Of a DNA stretch of 64,000 nt, positions 5,490-31,573 are shown in pieces; within the stretch, counting starts at the first letter, position 1; every line of letters begins with the position of its first letter. The stretch is from Patescibacteria group bacterium (lineage in GTDB: Bacteria > Patescibacteriota > Minisyncoccia > Phycocordibacterales > UBA1550). The notes below the pieces were generated by a model, which was not told the DNA's origin, did not search any database, and saw nothing but the letters and a program-made list of their open reading frames with translations. The stretch is taken from NCBI GenBank assembly GCA_038057125.1, contig JBBUDU010000002.1, positions 85,240-149,239 on the forward strand. Reading direction: 5' to 3'. The position numbers and the translations under genes were made by a program.

Positions 5490-8400
5490 CTAATATTCAA
5501 CAGTTAAGTTTCCCTTGTCCGTCATCAGCTTCAGAATCCTCAATCCTGTAAAAGTTTCTTTGACTCCGCTGGTGTCGTCATCTTCATTGTTATCATTGTT
5601 CCCTTTGATTTTCTTTTTAATTTTTGTGGTGTTTTTCTTCGCATCATAGTGTGCCTCAATTTTTAGGGTACCCACCGTCGTTTTTTGTTCAAGTTCTTTG
5701 AGGTTTCCCGACTTATCCACAGACCATTCGTATTTTAGTGTAGTTTTAGGAATTGTGCTCGTTAATACACCGTTATAGACAAGTCCACCCAGCTCCAGTT
5801 TAATTTCTTTTTTCCCTTGCTTATATTTACTGAAAATGATTTGAAGGGTATTGTCTGATTTGTCGGCAACAATCGTGCTCGTGGCAGTGGTTGAGACCAT
5901 GGTGGCGGAAAGATTGTCGGTGCCGATGATATTCAATTTTTGCGTAACTACATCAAAGGTTAGGGTCGCCTCGGGAGGCGTGGTGTCAAGGGTGATGGAA
6001 TTGTCGGCTCCAACAACGACACCGTATCCACCGGTAACTGGTATTTGACTCAATGGAACATTTTGCGCCAGCGGGATAGTAGTACTACCGGCAGTGAAAT
6101 CAAGGGAGTAGGTTTGGTCGGGAGTTGTACTTGCCATCGGAGAAATCTGTATACGGTAGGTGCCTTGTTTGAGGACGGGAGAGTAGGCAACATCCTCGGG
6201 GTAGCCCTGTGGGTCTATGTCTATCGTAGTATACATAAGATCACCGGATGACCGAATGTATTCTTCGTCGGTTGAAACGCCGGCAGTATCAGAAACACTA
6301 TTACCATCTGGGTCGGTAACAGAAAGGTGTATTGGTGAATGCTTGGTAATAGCCATGGCGATAGTGGCATTTTTGGGACGACCAAAGGCGACAAAACCTG
6401 AAACTTGTTTGTATGAATTTTTTAACTTGCCTTCAATTTTTTTACCTGGTTTTGGTGCGCTAACTACATCAAAGCCCCCGCTCTCACCAACATACATAGC
6501 CTCATGGTCAATACGCCCATTTCCATCCCAATCAAAAAATAACAAATCCCCAGGCTGCAAATCTGACTCTGCTACTGGCTGTACATTGTTGTAATATTGA
6601 TCATTCGCACTTTCATATTTAATAAAATTAGAGACAAAGTTTTTATGTGGATTATTTGATCGATTGTATGACCATCCAATTAAACCGGAACAATCAACAC
6701 CATCCCCTATCCCAAAATCTCCCTTCCCTGGCGCCTTGGCATCAGGATTCCAGTATTTGTAATTTGTCTTTACGGTATTAGTGTCAGTAAAAAGTCTGTT
6801 TGCAAAATCCCACCCTTTACCACCCCAAAGATAGTTCTGGTTTAACAACTCCTTTGCCAAGTCCGCTGCTTTTATATTTAAAGGTACCTTCACCTCAAAA
6901 TCTACATTCCCCACCACACCAAACTCCTGCCACGCACTCGTATTCCCCTTGTCGTCCACCGCTCGCGCGCGCCAGTGATACGCACCTTCAGGAATAGAAT
7001 TTTCTGTGGTGGTGGCAATACCTCCAGAAACAACGAAACTGCTTTCTAAAAGATTTGTTCCATCAAACAGTTGGCTTGATTCTTTTAATTCTACTTGGAG
7101 CTTAATGTGGTCATTGTCGATGTCGGAGAGAGTTGCTTCAAAAACAACTCTTTGTTCGGCAGTCATTACTCCTTCATTAATTGTAGTTACGCCGTCCGAT
7201 TTAAATTGCAAAATATTTGAAATTGTCGGTGGTTGATTGACGGGAACCTTCCACCCATCCTGTGTTATCCACGGCAAATTATCCTGGTCGCCGTAGAAAA
7301 CATACGGTGAATCACAGAAGTTGTCACTGTTTGCATCATTGCAACCCTCGACTGGCGTATCGTAATCGCTCCAATAGTTGCCACTGACTGGAGAAACAAG
7401 ATTGAATATGTTGCCACTGCCACCACTAACATAAGTCTGCGTGGAGTTATTGATAAAATTGTTATTATAGATTTGATTACCACTGGAATAATAGAAATGG
7501 ATTCCATAGTAATTATTTGACACAGTATTGCTGGTTATGGTGTTGCCACTGGAATAGGAAAGATAGGTTCCTAAATAATTATTAGATGTAGTGTTGTTGG
7601 TCAGGGTGTTATTATTACTGAAATAGTATAATTCAATTCCGGAAACATTATTTGATACATTGTTGTTGGTCAGCATATTGCCCATGGAAGAGTAGAAAAG
7701 TAGAATTCCTCTGCTGTTATTATTTAACGAAGTATTACTGGTCAGTGTGTTGCCACTGGAAGAGTAGAGGAAGATTCCGATGTTATTATTTGATAGGGTA
7801 GTGTTACTAGTCAGTGTGTTTCCAGTGGAAGATTCAAGGTAGATTCCATGGTAATTATTTGATAAAATGTTGTTGGCTATGGTATTCTTACTCGAAAAGT
7901 AAAGATAGATTCCGAATGAAAATTTTTTAATAATGAAGTTTCTGACAGTAACGCCAGTTCTTCCGTAAAGATAGACACCGGTTCCAGTATTGCTTCCTGT
8001 CAGAGTGTGGCCGTTGCCATCTAAGGTTACACTATCACTATCTATCTGAATGGTCTCGGTTAAATCTATATTAAGTGTGCAGGTTTTAGTAGTGATATCC
8101 CAATTACCGATGAGGTAACAATCGCCGCCAGTGGTGTCGTCTTTGATAAACTTGGTGCTGTGGCGTGGCTGGATGAAAATTACATGATTGGTTGATATAT
8201 CTTGTGTATATGAATATGCTCCACTACCGTCCGATTTGAATTCGGTTAGATTATGATAATTATCCTCATATCTATAGTATATGGTGCTTGGTTGGAAACC
8301 ATGAAGGGTTATTTGGGTTGAGGTGGAGGAAGTTGAAAAAGTGGGTGGCCATATCATCATAGTTACCATCTCGGGGACTGATTCCAGTTTTAATTTGACG

Positions 8401-8989: not shown

Positions 8990-10738
8990 TCATTCTGACA
9001 CCACACGCAATACTTCTTCTATTGTTGTCATTCCTTGCACTGACTTCAATATACCGTCTTCGAGCATCGTACTCATCCCTTCTTTTTTTGCATGCTCTTC
9101 AATGGCGACTGGAGTTTCTCCTTTCATGATGAGGTCGCGGATAGTAGGAGACATTTTCAAAACCTCGTGAATGCCCACACGGCCTTTGTAGCCGTCCTCC
9201 GACTCTTCTGATTTTTTGGGACGATAAAACGGAATATCTTTCCATGTTGCATTTGGCGCAACGATGTTTTCTTCTTTCAAAACTTTCATCACGCGGTCAA
9301 GGTCAACAGATTTTTTAAGCGCATCGACTTCGGCGGGACTAAGGAAATATTTTTCTTTTGAGGAGGCTAGTCGGCGCACAAGACGCTGTGCGATGATAAC
9401 ATTTACCGTTGAAACAATGAGGAACGGCTCGATATCCATATCGAGAAGACGTGGCATTGTGGCGGCGGCTGAGTTTGTGTGGAGCGTTGAAAGCACGAGG
9501 TGCCCCGTGAGCGCTGCATTCACCGCAAGCGACGCCGTTTCATTGTCACGAATTTCACCTACCATAATGATGTCCGGATCCTGACGAACGAGAGAGCGAA
9601 GACCGGAGGCAAAAGTGAGTCCTATCTCCGTCTTTACCTGCGTTTGATTTACGCGGGTCATTTGGTATTCAATCGGGTCTTCAATGGTGGAAATATTCAC
9701 ATCGGGCTCGTTTAAAATGTCCAAAATAGTATAGAGCGTTGTCGATTTACCGGACCCTGTCGGCCCCGTGGTGAGAATCATTCCCACGCGCTGTTTTGTG
9801 GCTGCATAAATACGCTCGAGCCCGGCGCCGTGAAAACCAAGACCCTCGAGAGTAAAACCAGAAACCGATTCACGCAAAAGACGCATAACCGTCTTCTCTC
9901 CGTAGTAGACAGGAAGAGTAGACACACGAAATGCAACTTTCTCTCCAGCCGATTCTATTTTGAAACGCCCGTCTTGCGGAAGACGCTTTTCATCGAGCTT
10001 CAAACTTGCAAGCACTTTAATGCGCGCGACAATTCCCGGAGCCGCGGTTTTTGGCAGAACCATCGCATCATGCAAAAGCCCGTCGATGCGATACCTTATG
10101 ACTACTTGCGAGTCCATCGGCTCAATATGAATATCTGACGCGCCCTGAATGATTGCGTGGTTGAGCAGAGTGTCCACTATCTTTACCACTGGCAAATCCT
10201 CGGCGAGTTTTTTCAAGTCCTCTTCGCTTTGCGCTTCATCGCCTTCCGCGACCATCTTGAGCGCGCTCGCCTCTTTTTCAATGATGTCACCAAACTCCGC
10301 CTTAAGACTCTTCTGATACTGGAGAAGCATTCCTTTAATAGATTCTTTGTCGGTGAGGCGTGGGAGAATCTTTAGTCCAACTTTCTTTTTGACGAACTCA
10401 ATAGCGCCGAGGTCGTCCGTGTCGAGCATCGCAACTTCAAGAGCGGAAGGTGTCTTCTTAAATGCGACAATATTGTGCTTGCGGGCGATCGGCTCCGGAA
10501 TAAGCGAGAGGATTTCAAAATCAATTTTCTGTCCTTTCAAATTTACAAAAGGAATACCGAGGATATATGCTTCCGTGCGACTGAGGTCGTCTTCGGAAAG
10601 TTTTCCTTCAGAAACGAGGATGTCCCCAAGGTACATCTTCTTTTCGACGGCACGCTTCTCGGCGTTTTCAAGCTCTGTGCGCGGTACGAGCCCCGAGTCG
10701 ATGATGAAATCCTTGAGCTGTTGATTGTTAACGGTCAT
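8990..10738 (-). CDS. pilB: type IV pilus assembly ATPase PilB (GspE family)
   Basis: 582 aa with Walker A GPTGSGKST, IIMVGEIRD, and His box LTGHLVLSTLHT. N-terminal GspE-N type domain. Confidence 0.92.
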   Translation of the reverse strand: MTVNNQQLKDFIIDSGLVPRTELENAEKRAVEKKMYLGDILVSEGKLSEDDLSRTEAYILGIPFVNLKGQKIDFEILSLIPEPIARKHNIVAFKKTPSALEVAMLDTDDLGAIEFVKKKVGLKILPRLTDKESIKGMLLQYQKSLKAEFGDIIEKEASALKMVAEGDEAQSEEDLKKLAEDLPVVKIVDTLLNHAIIQGASDIHIEPMDSQVVIRYRIDGLLHDAMVLPKTAAPGIVARIKVLASLKLDEKRLPQDGRFKIESAGEKVAFRVSTLPVYYGEKTVMRLLRESVSGFTLEGLGFHGAGLERIYAATKQRVGMILTTGPTGSGKSTTLYTILDILNEPDVNISTIEDPIEYQMTRVNQTQVKTEIGLTFASGLRSLVRQDPDIIMVGEIRDNETASLAVNAALTGHLVLSTLHTNSAAATMPRLLDMDIEPFLIVSTVNVIIAQRLVRRLASSKEKYFLSPAEVDALKKSVDLDRVMKVLKEENIVAPNATWKDIPFYRPKKSEESEDGYKGRVGIHEVLKMSPTIRDLIMKGETPVAIEEHAKKEGMSTMLEDGILKSVQGMTTIEEVLRVVSE

Positions 10739-23123: not shown

Positions 23124-23260
23124 TTTGACGAGAGAGGAGCGTGTGGAAGTGTACCCACTTACACAACGTCCGAGCGATGTTAAAATATTGTACCCGTTAT
23201 ATCTAAATTTCTTATGGAAATTTCCACGGAAGCATCCAATGCTTCCGATTAAAAACTGTG

Positions 23261-23331
23261 TCGGGGTGCCGAGAATCGAACTCGGCCTATCTGCTCCCAA
23301 AGCAGACGTACTACCGATATACTACACCCCG
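23261..23331 (-). tRNA. tRNA-Pro (anticodon UGG)
   Basis: Hand-folded 71 nt: acceptor CGGGGTG/CACCCCG, anticodon arm TCTGC-TTTGGGA-GCAGA, T arm CCGAG-TTCGATT-CTCGG. Confidence 0.88.
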
Positions 23332-23344
23332 ACACAATTTTTAA

Positions 23345-23460
23345 TCCCAAAGCAGACGTACTACCGATATATAACTGAATACAATATATTCTGCGCTCGC
23401 TCGGAAATTAAAACTTGCTAGTTTTATTTCGCTCACTCGCTTGAATATACTACACCCCGA
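23345..23460 (-). pseudogene. tRNA-Pro 5'-half pseudo-copy with a 73-nt insertion in the D-loop
   Basis: A 27-nt exact copy (23345-23371 = 23295-23321) and a 16-nt exact copy (23445-23460 = 23317-23332). ATATA is present on both sides of the insert but only once in the intact gene. Confidence 0.6.
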
Positions 23461-27216: not shown

Positions 27217-27441
27217 ATGAGTACTTTTGACTCCCAAAAAGAAGACGTGCAGTACCTGATACTGCGGCAACGTTTTGAAAGTTTACAAACAATGGTAGTT
27301 AGTCGACGAAACACAATCCTTGCTTTGAAGACAGACATTAAAATAACAACCCAGAGGTTGAACCAAGAAGAGGCGAGTCTTACAAAAAACGAAATGGAGC
27401 TAAAACGTTTGCGCGCCCTGCTTCATCCTGACGAACAATAG
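27217..27441 (+). CDS. 74-aa coiled-coil hypothetical protein
   Basis: The ATG at 27217 is preceded by AAGGAGGTG. The longer track ORF (26968) overlaps xth antisense and is unlikely. Confidence 0.45.
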   Translation: MSTFDSQKEDVQYLILRQRFESLQTMVVSRRNTILALKTDIKITTQRLNQEEASLTKNEMELKRLRALLHPDEQ

Positions 27442-27492
27442 TTTCCAAACGAACCAAACACGCCATAATCTAATTATTTGGCGTGTTTTCTT

Positions 27493-27561
27493 TTATTGAC
27501 GACGTAGTGCGAGAAAGACATGAAAGTAAACTTTCATGTCTTCGAGCCGAGGAGTTAATAA
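27493..27561. repeat. conserved hairpin motif, copy 1
   Basis: TTATTGAC-GACGTAGTGCGAG-[13-bp hairpin]-CGAGCCGAGGA-GTTAATAA. It aligns with 30903-30965, with fully compensated stems. Confidence 0.55.
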
Positions 27562-27569
27562 AGTACTCT

Positions 27570-28505
27570 TTACCTCCCTTTACCATGAAACTTTTTATGC
27601 ACATTACGAAGCTCACTATCGGTGATGTGGGTATAAATTTGCGTTGTGGAAATGCTTGAATGACCGAGCATCATTTGCACCGAGCGAATATCCGCGCCAT
27701 TGAAAAGCAAGTCAGTTGCAAAACTGTGACGCAAAATGTGAGGTGTAACCTTATCCATAATGCCGGCTTTTGCGGCGTAGAATTTTACCATACGTTCTAC
27801 CGAGCGAGGACTGAGACGAAGTGAACCGTCATCGCGACCACGCTTCATTTCACTCACAAAGAGCGCATCATCCATGTCGGTTCTCTTTTTTAAGTATGCG
27901 TTAATTGCTTTCTTTGCTACGTCTGCAATAAACACAACGCGTACTTTTTCACCCTTACCGCGCACAGATATTTCGTCGCGGCTTAGGTCAATGTCACGTC
28001 CGAGCGCGCACAATTCTGAAAGACGAAGCCCTGTGGAAAAGAAAAGTTCGAGGATTGCTTTATCGCGAAGCTCTTTTATATCGTCGCCATTGGGCGCATC
28101 GAGAAGTCGTCTCAAATCCTCTCCAGTCAGAAGGTCAATCGTACGCTCGGCAACTTTTGCGAGTTCAATTTTTTCCGGAGCATAAGACTCAATTCCACGC
28201 TTGCGCAAATACTTCAAAAAACTTCGAATGGCGATGAGATAATAATTTTGTGTTTTCTTTTTGAGTGTTTCATGGCGACCTTCACGAACGCCTGCGTCTT
28301 GGCGGTTAAGCCACAATCTAAAAGAGCGTATGACATCGTCTGTAATATCACTTGGCTTTTTTGCGCCGCTTGCCATAAAAAAGCGAACGAGGTATCGTTC
28401 ATAGTTCTCAATGGTTTTTAAACTCCGCCCGCGCTCGATTTCCAAATATTCTAAATATTGTCGTGCGAGTGTGCCAAGGGGAGAGGATGGAATATTGTGC
28501 GACAT
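27570..28505 (-). CDS. tyrosine recombinase, XerC/XerD-like
   Basis: HILRHSFATDLL, LGHSSISTTQIYTH. The ATG at 28505 is preferred over the GTG at 28523. Confidence 0.85.
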   Translation of the reverse strand: MSHNIPSSPLGTLARQYLEYLEIERGRSLKTIENYERYLVRFFMASGAKKPSDITDDVIRSFRLWLNRQDAGVREGRHETLKKKTQNYYLIAIRSFLKYLRKRGIESYAPEKIELAKVAERTIDLLTGEDLRRLLDAPNGDDIKELRDKAILELFFSTGLRLSELCALGRDIDLSRDEISVRGKGEKVRVVFIADVAKKAINAYLKKRTDMDDALFVSEMKRGRDDGSLRLSPRSVERMVKFYAAKAGIMDKVTPHILRHSFATDLLFNGADIRSVQMMLGHSSISTTQIYTHITDSELRNVHKKFHGKGR

Positions 28506-28568
28506 GTAAATACAGTATACCACCGTAGACTACTAGCAAAAACGTTTCATCTACGCTAGAATCTTCTT

Positions 28569-30823: not shown

Positions 30824-30902
30824 AAACTTCATGAGATACTATGAGTAGTTTCTTGTAATCATTTTTAATAACTTTCGCGCGCTTCGTGCGCGCACATTTT
30901 CA

Positions 30903-30965
30903 TTAGCGACGTAGAGCGAGCAGGATGCAAAAGTAATCTTTTGCATCCTCGAGCCGAGAAGCTAA
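30903..30965. repeat. conserved hairpin motif, copy 2
   Basis: TTAGC-GACGTAGAGCGAG-[12-bp hairpin]-CGAGCCGAGAA-GCTAA. It ends 18 nt before the NYN gene ATG and is preceded by the GC hairpin GCGCGC-TTCGT-GCGCGC. Confidence 0.55.
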
Positions 30966-30982
30966 TATAGTAACCTATATAT

Positions 30983-31573
30983 ATGGCAATCATTAAACAA
31001 AAAGAACAACGCGTTGCAATGTTCATTGACGCACAAAACCTTTACCACAGCGCTCGCAATCTCTATGGGGCAAAAGTAAATTTCGGCGCTGTCCTCAAAG
31101 AAGCGGTGGCAGGCAGGCACCTCGTGCGAGCTATCGCGTACGTAATCACCACCGAGGGTGAAGAAGAAAAAAGTTTCTTTGAAGCCCTCAACAATCTCGG
31201 TATTGAAACAAAAACAAAAGACCTCCAAATATTTTTTGGCGGAGCAAAGAAAGCCGACTGGGATGTCGGTCTCGCGGTTGACGCAATCCGCCTTGGGTCA
31301 AAGGTTGACGCCGTAGTGCTCGCGTCCGGCGATGGCGACTTTGTCCCTCTCGTTGAATACTTAAAGTTCATGGGAACGCAGGTCGAAGTTATCACCTTTG
31401 GACGCTCTGCCTCGGGGAAACTTCGTGAAGTGGCCGATGATTTTGTAGACATGTGCGATGATCAGCGCAAATACCTTCTCGGTTCTCGAGGTGGAAATAT
31501 TGGTGGTGGAAATCCTCGCCGTAGCGCACACAGGCAGCCGCTAGTCCGTCGCAAGGAAAACCCGAAAGAGTAA
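30983..31573 (+). CDS. NYN-domain (LabA-like) protein
   Basis: MFIDAQNLYHSA ... VLASGDGDFVPLVEYLK. Confidence 0.8.
   Translation: MAIIKQKEQRVAMFIDAQNLYHSARNLYGAKVNFGAVLKEAVAGRHLVRAIAYVITTEGEEEKSFFEALNNLGIETKTKDLQIFFGGAKKADWDVGLAVDAIRLGSKVDAVVLASGDGDFVPLVEYLKFMGTQVEVITFGRSASGKLREVADDFVDMCDDQRKYLLGSRGGNIGGGNPRRSAHRQPLVRRKENPKE

Follow-up and report, generated by a model that had tools for sequence, protein, structure and literature searches.

The 64,000-nucleotide stretch of DNA considered here (hereafter the window) comes from a Patescibacteria group bacterium and carries a cluster of tRNA genes alongside the housekeeping genes of a reduced genome. Amongst these are a XerC/D-type recombinase gene (hereafter xerC; 27573-28523, minus strand, Phage_integrase Pfam match) and a gene for an NYN-domain protein (30983-31573, + strand, Pfam match), together with genes that, from reading their translations, we take to encode a CCA-adding enzyme, exonuclease III (exoIII), a sodium:solute symporter and rpsO. 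The nearest named relative with the same xerC (85% identity) is a metagenome-assembled genome (MAG) of the Minisyncoccia, within the Patescibacteria or candidate phyla radiation (CPR). Two short hairpin-forming motifs lie next to these genes: copy 1 is found between xerC and a convergent gene of 73 amino acids (aa; ~27220-27441, + strand), a small gene that is conserved in relatives, and copy 2 is found between rpsO and the NYN gene, both of which are on the + strand. The motifs are very probably copies of a gene-less family of miniature mobile elements that is specific to the Patescibacteria and was uncatalogued before.

A first-pass annotation of the window described a two-copy hairpin motif with compensated stems and fixed loop strands, and this description stands. 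The two segments, 27493-27561 and 30903-30965 (both + strand), have in common GACGTAGNGCGAG ... CGAGCCGAGRA, and the strands that are fixed in both are GACGTAG(T/A)GCGAG and CGAGCCGAG(G/A)A. The stems, on the other hand, are unrelated between the copies yet self-complementary: the outer stem (P1) is TTGAC/GTTAA, including one G.T pair, in copy 1 and TTAGC/GCTAA in copy 2, and the inner hairpin (P2) likewise changes. Copy 1 is laid out as TTGAC-GACGTAGTGCGAG-A-(AAGACATGAAAG-TAAA-CTTTCATGTCTT)-CGAGCCGAGGA-GTTAA and copy 2 as TTAGC-GACGTAGAGCGAG-C-(AGGATGCAAAAG-TAAT-CTTTTGCATCCT)-CGAGCCGAGAA-GCTAA. The pattern GCGAG-N15-45-CGAGCCGAG has exactly 2 matches in the 64 kb, compared with 0 in 100 dinucleotide-preserving shuffles. 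When folded as RNA, the + strands reach -28.1 kcal/mol (z = -4.6) for copy 1 and -29.4 kcal/mol (z = -5.7) for copy 2, and the reverse strands of both copies fold more weakly. The extent originally given covers the core, which is present, but the unit runs further 3' and includes a second hairpin of 5 bp (P3).

Comparison of filled with empty sites showed the element to be an insertion with sharp boundaries, one that close relatives lack at the corresponding positions. To this end, 80 syntenic metagenome loci (575 kb; xerC identity 61-85%) were fetched with the xerC protein. Site 1 is empty in L121, the xerC of which is 85% identical, and reads hairpin-TAATTTTTTA^CCTCC (^ marks a junction), ending in ...TTTTTTA^CCTCC, its TTA being the xerC stop codon in complement. 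In the window the same site is filled and reads hairpin-TCTTTTA^TTGAC...CTCTTTA^CCTCC, a 77-bp insertion; the last three bases of copy 1 are TTA, the complement of the xerC stop codon, which copy 1 now supplies. The insertion point follows TTTA in the T-tract of the terminator of the small convergent gene, and the boundary is ambiguous by at most 4 nt as TTTA stands at both junctions. Site 2 is empty in L126, reading hairpin-CCATTTTCA^TATATGgcaatc (...CATTTTCA^TATATGG), and is filled in the window, reading hairpin-ACATTTTCA^TTAGC...AACCTATA^TATATGgcaatc (...CATTTTCA^30903-30979^TATATGG), again an insertion of 77 bp. Here the insertion point lies between TTTTCA and TATATG, 3 nt 5' of the start codon of the NYN gene. 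With respect to target duplication, site 1 is compatible with TTA or TTTA, and site 2 has none (TCA on the left, ATA on the right). The coordinates of the copies, their parts and the adjoining hairpins are collected in Table 1.

Table 1. Positions of the three element copies, their structural parts and the adjoining hairpins in the window
Feature	Position	Strand	Evidence
Copy 1, complete 77-bp element	27496..27572	+	Filled versus empty site (L121); covariance model R1 85.2 bits, E = 3.7e-25
Copy 1, P1 5' strand TTGAC, pairs with 27554-27558 GTTAA (one G.T pair)	27496..27500	+	
Copy 1, internal loop 5' strand GACGTAGTGCGAG and bulged A	27501..27514	+	
Copy 1, P2 hairpin AAGACATGAAAG - TAAA - CTTTCATGTCTT, 12 bp	27515..27542	+	
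Copy 1, internal loop 3' strand CGAGCCGAGGA	27543..27553	+	
Copy 1, P1 3' strand GTTAA, then P3 mini-hairpin TAAAG-tact-CTTTA (27559-27572)	27554..27572	+	
Copy 2, complete 77-bp element (boundary +/-1 nt)	30903..30979	+	Filled versus empty site (L126); R1 82.8 bits, E = 2.2e-24
Copy 2, internal loop 5' strand GACGTAGAGCGAG	30908..30920	+	
Copy 2, P2 hairpin AGGATGCAAAAG - TAAT - CTTTTGCATCCT	30922..30949	+	
Copy 2, loop 3' strand CGAGCCGAGAA, P1 3' strand GCTAA, P3 TATAG-taac-CTATA (30966-30979)	30950..30979	+	
Hairpin terminator with its T-tract, belonging to the convergent 73-aa gene; outside the element	27452..27495 (hairpin 27452-27488)	+	Orthologue in L121 and L126, which lack the element
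GC hairpin and ACATTTTCA, outside the element; copy 2 directly 3'	30877..30902 (hairpin 30877-30893)	+	Equivalent hairpin and CCATTTTCA in L126, which lacks the element
Copy 3, diverged B-type, loop strands AAGCGAGTGAG and CGAGCGAGCGCA	23368..23445	-	R1 18.9 bits, E = 0.0018; homologues L130 and L140

Across the syntenic loci, a covariance model (R1) found the element in 4/80 and adjoining xerC in only 1/80 (L137), and the closest relatives have a clean empty site. The connection with xerC that had been proposed earlier is thereby not borne out, and a link with xerC, NYN or any other neighbouring gene was rejected (79/80 xerC loci have no element adjoining xerC). In loci L040 and L137 (xerC 85% and 69% identical to that of the window at the aa level) the spacer 3' of xerC likewise contains an element, the exact position and the P2 or P3 sequence of which differ, whilst seven other relatives at 82-85% xerC identity have no element in this spacer. 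The distribution is best accounted for by a hot spot at which the element has been gained or lost repeatedly. The terminator-like hairpins noted on the low-coordinate side are indeed present at both copies, that at 30877-30902 included, but they are pre-existing terminators of upstream + strand genes; as they are kept in relatives without the element, they are older than the element and independent of it. The candidate view that they form part of the element was likewise ruled out, given that such hairpins accompany only about one quarter of copies and are also found at empty sites.

The family was extended by scanning species-representative genomes for the two loop strands, which matched at least 120 loci. 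About 90 genuine copies are found among the matches listed, all in low-GC Patescibacteria MAGs, the record titles of which name Saccharibacteria, Paceibacteria, Kaiser-, Doudna-, Komeili-, Buchanan-, Yonath-, Zambryski- and Vogelbacteria as well as Minisyncoccia. Some 30 listed matches in Actinomycetota and other high-GC phyla were discarded as chance, being the antisense of one conserved coding stretch. These chance exact matches to 21 nt of the loop occur in L003-L006, L018, L020, L023, L025 and ~20 other high-GC loci, within a stretch reading ...FSMGPLGS...TDSPYVVVNMRIMTRMG... that, from its motifs and unchecked against Pfam, presumably belongs to a GTP-dependent phosphoenolpyruvate carboxykinase; they serve as a warning for pattern-based searches. 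R1 recovered both window copies and, in the collected loci, around twelve others that are partly degenerate; L011 carries one copy, and the 11 kb of L124 contains none. The pattern scan and R1 together give ~100 copies in ~90 loci, all of them Patescibacteria MAGs, among the matches listed. Minimal members are 77 bp in length and others reach ~200 bp through expansion of hairpin tips. Among viral contigs (IMG/VR) there were 0 copies, and a viral origin was rejected. In Rfam 15 the window and 18 family loci gave only tRNAs at the gathering threshold, and permissive scans of both copies (E <= 10) gave chance-level matches alone (E >= 0.16), so that the element corresponds to no known RNA family there. 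A search of the literature on CPR RNA motifs, repeats or MITEs (miniature transposable elements with inverted repeats) found no description of it, nor was any paper found on dispersed repeat elements in CPR/Patescibacteria.

With the family in hand, the covariation proposed from two sequences could be examined on 44 members of the same length against 500 shuffles. The anatomy is that of a 5-bp P1, an asymmetric purine-rich internal loop (13 nt versus 11 nt), a 12-bp P2 hairpin and the second hairpin, P3. Changes on both sides were seen at 16/19 pairs, comprising 12/12 pairs of the inner stem (P2) and 4/7 of the outer stem (P1), and the covariation score was equalled in 0/500 shuffles; 89.6% of cells were paired, compared with 72% in shuffles and 33-50% when partners were slid. 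P1 proper consists of 5 bp, YTRGC/GCYAR, and is mostly TTAGC, CTGGC or CGAGC. A variant of the P2 tip reads GNAGCGAAGCGNAA. The + strand is the informative strand, as it is the more stable in 91/92 copies (mean difference 5.8 kcal/mol) and G.T pairs outnumber A.C pairs 42 to 17 in P2; this is contrary to the minus-strand small RNA originally suggested. Relative to the core, conservation extends from -9 to +13 (TTTAYTRGC, core, GAGYTAAWA.AGG), and in the family alignment no sequence is conserved upstream of position -12, on which ground a promoter of the element's own was rejected.

The internal loop can be written as two tandem G.A motifs and a loop-E-like module. On this model, GCGAG opposite CGAGC can form G-C, C-G, G.A, A.G and G-C, as had been proposed from the two window copies, and the predicted fold uses those Watson-Crick pairs. 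The P1-proximal part would comprise G10.A62, A11.G61, C12-G60, a bulged G13, U14.A59 and A15.G58, and the P2-proximal part G16-C57, a bulged R17, G18-C56, C19-G55, G20.A54, A21.G53 and G22-C52, followed by one bulged nucleotide and P2. The thermodynamic RNA fold uses exactly the Watson-Crick pairs of this written model, among them the predicted C12-G60 and G16-C57, which would flank the putative bulged-G module. The sequence pattern of such a module (5'-N-G-U-A-N opposite 5'-N-G-A-N) is matched by C12-G13-U14-A15-G16 opposite C57-G58-A59-G60; the diverged B-type subfamily described below is without GUA. The further proposal of a kink-turn (K-turn) fails on inspection, as no 3-nt bulge stands next to a Watson-Crick stem before either tandem G.A: G20A21/G53A54 is flanked on both sides by Watson-Crick pairs, and G10A11/G61A62 abuts P1 on both strands.

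The P3 hairpin follows P1 directly. Its base is WA.AGG/CCT.TW and its arms vary compensatorily between copies, for example TATAGGC/GCCTATA, AAACCGG/CCGGTTT, AAATTGG/CCAATTT and GAATGGT/ACCATTT. It is a 5-bp mini-hairpin in both window copies, whilst in other members it is a three-way junction of ~100 nt; in L076, L088 and L050 an extra hairpin lies between CGAGCCGAG and GAG, giving three-way-junction variants. Taken together, P3's 3' strand and P1's 5' strand (CCT.TA^TTAGC) form a contiguous complement of the internal segment GCTAATA.AGG, which acts as a splint, and single-strand folding would therefore place both termini side by side at the helix junction. Nested GC-rich palindromes (CCCTGCGC...GCGCAGGG) were observed inside long P3 domains (L077, L029, L090, L056 and L007), and hairpins tipped with GAGCGAAGCGAA-like sequence contain GCGAAGC and also adjoin tRNA genes (L140, ~6200-6700). 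GCGAAGC is a very stable mini-hairpin as DNA. Both the nested palindromes and the GCGAAGC tips may represent small palindromes inserted as a second layer.

T-T-A directly precedes the insertion point of the element; in most cases this is TTTA, frequently in the T-tract of an intrinsic terminator, and the right end of the element is (T/A)TA. Indeed, positions -8, -7 and -6 are T, T and A in 91%, 95% and 98% of copies, and the left hexamer is perfectly repeated downstream, at the right junction, in 28/80 copies compared with 8/80 in the upstream control. Around one quarter of copies directly follow a strong hairpin and T-tract, from which it follows that terminator T-tracts are common landing sites. 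The right-flank base correlates with subfamily, a relationship that is suggestive given that automated calling of right ends is noisy. Head-to-tail pairs were found in L092 (~1478-1650), L034 (1093-1231) and L089 (3384-3494), where the second copy, often degenerate, begins at the TTTA that ends the first; tandem copies are to be expected if the element's own right end recreates the target (self-targeting). In 20 pairs of copies P2 is at least 90% identical (100% in six of these), with flanks at ~50%, the level of unrelated sequence.

Orientation relative to the flanking genes is mixed (++ 24, -- 21, +- 21, -+ 14), with some excess between convergent genes, and the presence of copies in all four orientations argues against the role in a 3' untranslated region that had been suggested and against any other cis-acting RNA. 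All-against-all clustering of 322 flanking open reading frames (ORFs) gave no recurrent neighbour family. The copies that were checked for an overlapping open frame all lie upstream of the real gene start and are thus intergenic; insertion into genes in frame, in the manner of Rickettsia RPE, was ruled out because the spanning frames in L039, L107, L029 and L063 put the element before the real start. The folding strand is the G-rich strand in 53/85 loci (p = 0.03), and the GC skew of the window is too weak to orient replication.

A third, diverged copy of the B-type is present in the window (Table 1), and its loop strands still give two tandem G.A motifs. It lies inside a partial copy of tRNA-Pro(UGG), a duplicate truncated to the first 37 nt, which it splits in the D-loop. 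This duplicate (23345-23459, minus strand; CGGGGTGTAGTATA ... TCGGTAGTACGTCTGCTTTGGGA) is located 13 nt upstream of the intact gene at 23260-23331. All three known B-type copies (in the window, in L130 at 10582-10646 and in L140 at 6406-6474) are found just upstream of a tRNA gene and co-oriented with it, which may reflect a subfamily-specific target or a role in the tRNA leader, although there are three cases only. The L130 copy sits directly after a conserved promoter-like block.

Several observations concern the genes next to copies 1 and 2. The 73-aa ORF has no Pfam match; the ORF and its terminator are kept in L121 and L126, and the ORF is absent in L122, L123, L125 and L127, where exoIII directly follows xerC. 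In all probability the ORF is a genuine small gene, of a kind that may escape automated annotation. Conserved non-coding blocks are found 5' of the NYN gene (30830-30876; also in L121, L124 and L126), reading CTTCATGAGATACTAT ... AATCATTTTTAATAA followed by a GC hairpin, and are probably its promoter and leader; no Shine-Dalgarno sequence precedes its ATG.

How the element moves is less clear than that it does so. The account favoured here, with moderate confidence, is that it is a non-autonomous element mobilised as single-stranded DNA in the manner of IS200/IS605. Under this model the + strand would fold as single-stranded DNA, and the element would be moved by cutting and rejoining, catalysed in trans by an enzyme encoded by the host or by an insertion sequence, as in the 'peel and paste' of IS200/IS605. 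After excision as a single-strand circle, the element would insert on the 3' side of a short target; the conserved loop would serve as the recognition surface of the enzyme, and the stems would be kept by selection for mobility. This reading draws on the lack of terminal inverted repeats, the short fixed 5' target, the seamless empty sites, the hairpins at the ends and the single informative strand. The juxtaposition of the termini by the splint fits an end-to-end single-strand reaction, and the bias towards the G-rich strand has the sign that one would expect if single-strand transposition acts on the lagging-strand template (PMC5027513).

A number of points weigh against this account. The bias with respect to replication strand is weak, and the ends are defined by two filled/empty comparisons, both of the TTRRC subfamily. 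No transposase is linked to the element and no autonomous copy with tnpA (Y1) was found in ~1.2 Mb of loci; the only Y1 (IS200-like) genes in the collected loci, in L044 and L087, carry their own, different flanking hairpins. DNA energy parameters leave P1 open over the large loop whereas RNA parameters close it, and the loop looks like RNA tertiary modules. Moreover, the loop strands are kept across deeply divergent CPR classes beyond what would be expected of a purely selfish element, although their invariance is in part an artefact of the exact-match search, and matches found by the model alone carry substitutions in the loop, for example GACATAG, CGAGCTGAG and CAAGCCGAG. It is also conceivable, if rather doubtful, that the element represents a new mobile class defined by the three-way fold and internal splint, in which the purine core recruits a CPR housekeeping enzyme (for example Xer or an enzyme acting on single-stranded DNA) or is itself catalytic. 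If true, the mechanism of that class would be distinct from the HUH, DDE, serine and integron systems, and the class would be confined to the CPR and ancient within it.

An alternative, broadly that of the first-pass annotation, is that the element is a structured functional RNA, either a small RNA or a protein-binding module made of tandem G.A and loop-E motifs, the spread of which is secondary, or else an element co-opted for stabilisation, processing or termination. In its favour, tandem G.A pairs around a bulged-G (GUA/GA) module are one way of writing the purine-rich loop, the fold with RNA parameters closes P1 over the loop with predicted Watson-Crick pairs, and G.U-type pairs are tolerated on the + strand. 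Its hairpins are modular and optional (the three-way-junction variants and GCGAAGC-tipped extensions), all 3/3 B-type copies are placed upstream of and in line with a tRNA gene, and copy 2 sits in what is probably the NYN gene's 5' leader. We nevertheless consider it unlikely: with nothing conserved upstream of -12, a conserved promoter at constant spacing is lacking, roughly one quarter of copies come directly after a terminator hairpin and T-tract, and orientation to neighbours is random, 21 copies being antisense to both and copy 1 being antisense within the xerC 3' region. There is, in addition, no gene association, close relatives are without the element at the same sites, and Rfam offers no match at E <= 10. 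A smaller probability still attaches to the action of a tyrosine recombinase (XerC/XerD or integron-integrase-like) on a duplex site formed by the folded strand, with TTTAYT as the crossover core. Junctions of TTTA^TT or TTTA^C on both sides, the excess of repeated left hexamers over the control and the stacking of P3 and P1 into one continuous duplex centred on the junction would all suit such an enzyme, as would the base after the right TTTA, which is C in 8/12 copies of the C-starting subfamily versus 6/32 of the T-starting subfamily (by noisy automated calls), and xerC is a core gene of the window (Pfam) and of the 80 syntenic loci. However, most copies lack the attC R-box consensus (RYYYAAC/GTTRRRY), there are no cassette arrays and no intI gene, the core shared at site 2 is only one base (TCA^T versus ATA^T), and the proximity to xerC is coincidental, no dif-like arms being seen by inspection.

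Two further explanations appear very improbable. Mobilisation of a repetitive extragenic palindromic (REP) or REPIN-type element by a RAYT (REP-associated Y1 transposase) would agree with the dispersed, intergenic distribution, with the GTAG tetranucleotide within GACGTAG, as in REPs, and with a Y1_Tnp gene within 2 kb in 2/~90 loci; this last frequency is near chance expectation, though, and both Y1 genes are flanked by unrelated hairpin repeats of their own. The window is without a Y1 gene, the copies are single or in tandem rather than inverted REP pairs, and GTAG lies inside the loop and not at the hairpin foot. An RNA-based mobile element or self-cleaving ribozyme, with a catalytic loop, cleavage at UUA^ and UA^ and ends held by the splint to give circular RNA, is just as improbable. 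It would make sense of an internal complementary segment that juxtaposes the ends, of boundaries exactly at the helix feet and of an invariant, purine-rich loop that folds better as RNA than as DNA, but no promoter or reverse transcriptase linkage was found and there is no similarity to any known ribozyme family in Rfam.

The CPR/Patescibacteria are a mostly uncultured part of the bacterial tree with tiny, streamlined genomes, and an element family found across Saccharibacteria, Paceibacteria, Kaiserbacteria, Doudnabacteria and others would be a new marker of genome dynamics in this group. It would explain insertions and deletions at gene boundaries, as at the xerC stop codon and 3 nt from the NYN start codon, and its covariance model would stop such hairpins from being mistaken for riboswitches, small RNAs or terminators. 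The compensated stems, invariant tandem G.A, loop-E-like core and splint together make a concrete substrate with which to find the enzyme, perhaps a transposase or recombinase acting on single strands that has so far gone unrecognised; interest would be much higher if the conserved core defines a new mobilisation chemistry.

When compared with known systems, amongst the closest parallels are IS200/IS605 and its gene-less derivatives, the palindrome-associated transposable elements (PATEs), which the Y1 HUH transposase TnpA moves by single-strand 'peel and paste' transposition, the left end of IS608 always lying 3' of TTAC (PMC5027513; PMC3201880). Like these, the element lacks terminal inverted repeats and carries a hairpin structure at each end: the subterminal hairpins (P1/P2 on the left, P3 on the right) both covary or vary compensatorily, and the left end TTRRCGACGTAG and the right end ...AGG..CCT(T/A)TA are not inverted repeats of each other. 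The left end is likewise placed 3' of a short target (T-T-A here, TTAC in IS608), the empty sites are precise, and one specific strand folds, weakly biased to the G-rich, lagging-template side. It differs in that neither a TnpA or TnpB partner nor an autonomous copy was found, that the cleavage points would be at the hairpin foot and not 10-19 nt away, that the left end has a 24-nt purine-rich internal loop in place of a near-perfect palindrome, and that an internal splint links its two ends. REP/REPIN elements and their RAYTs offer a second likeness, as they are also short, dispersed, intergenic, hairpin-forming, GTAG-bearing and long-persisting, at tens of copies per genome; however, REPs are species-specific near-perfect palindromes, often in inverted pairs that flank the RAYT gene, whereas the element is asymmetric and shared across CPR classes. 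The two Y1_Tnp (RAYT-like) genes in the collected loci are flanked on both sides by hairpin repeats of their own, GAACCAGCAAGGCGACGCCTTGCTGGTT in L087 (4300-5120) and CAAGGTGAGTCCTTGACC in L044 (reverse-complement 1-1000), and CPR genomes therefore also carry conventional REP/RAYT-type systems. With repeats distinct from the element at both loci and no Y1_Tnp gene in the window, a RAYT/IS200 linkage was rejected.

Integron attC sites and the attP of CTX phage resemble the element in that structure is kept whilst stem sequence is free, the length of the terminal structure is variable and the recombination point lies in a folded-strand stem; in contrast, the element has no R-box/L-box consensus, arrays, cassettes or integrase, its loop is much larger and fixed in sequence, and its copies are dispersed among housekeeping genes, with P1 mostly one of the three sequences given above. 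The MITE-like repeats of bacteria (Correia, BOX, ERIC, RUP and Rickettsia RPE) are similarly small, non-coding, multi-copy and structured, with insertion polymorphism between strains, but those have terminal inverted repeats and/or TA-type duplications, or long imperfect palindromes, and the element has a non-Watson-Crick core. This core recalls RNA K-turn and loop-E (sarcin-ricin, bulged-G) motifs in its tandem sheared G.A between Watson-Crick pairs and in its GUA opposite GA with C-G and G-C flanks; it lacks the 3-nt bulge in K-turn geometry. Tandem G.A non-canonical pairs are also stable in DNA in a Y-GA-R context. Finally, TIGR-Tas loci adjoin a tas (Nop-domain) gene and consist of tandem arrays in which conserved box C/D-like motifs are separated by variable spacers (PMC12045711), and were ruled out because in the element the loops are invariant, the variable parts are base-paired, and there are no arrays and no recurrent neighbour gene. 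Each candidate known family thus fails at least one defining feature, and the element is set apart by its invariant non-Watson-Crick core, by the internal splint that joins its ends and by its distribution across the CPR.

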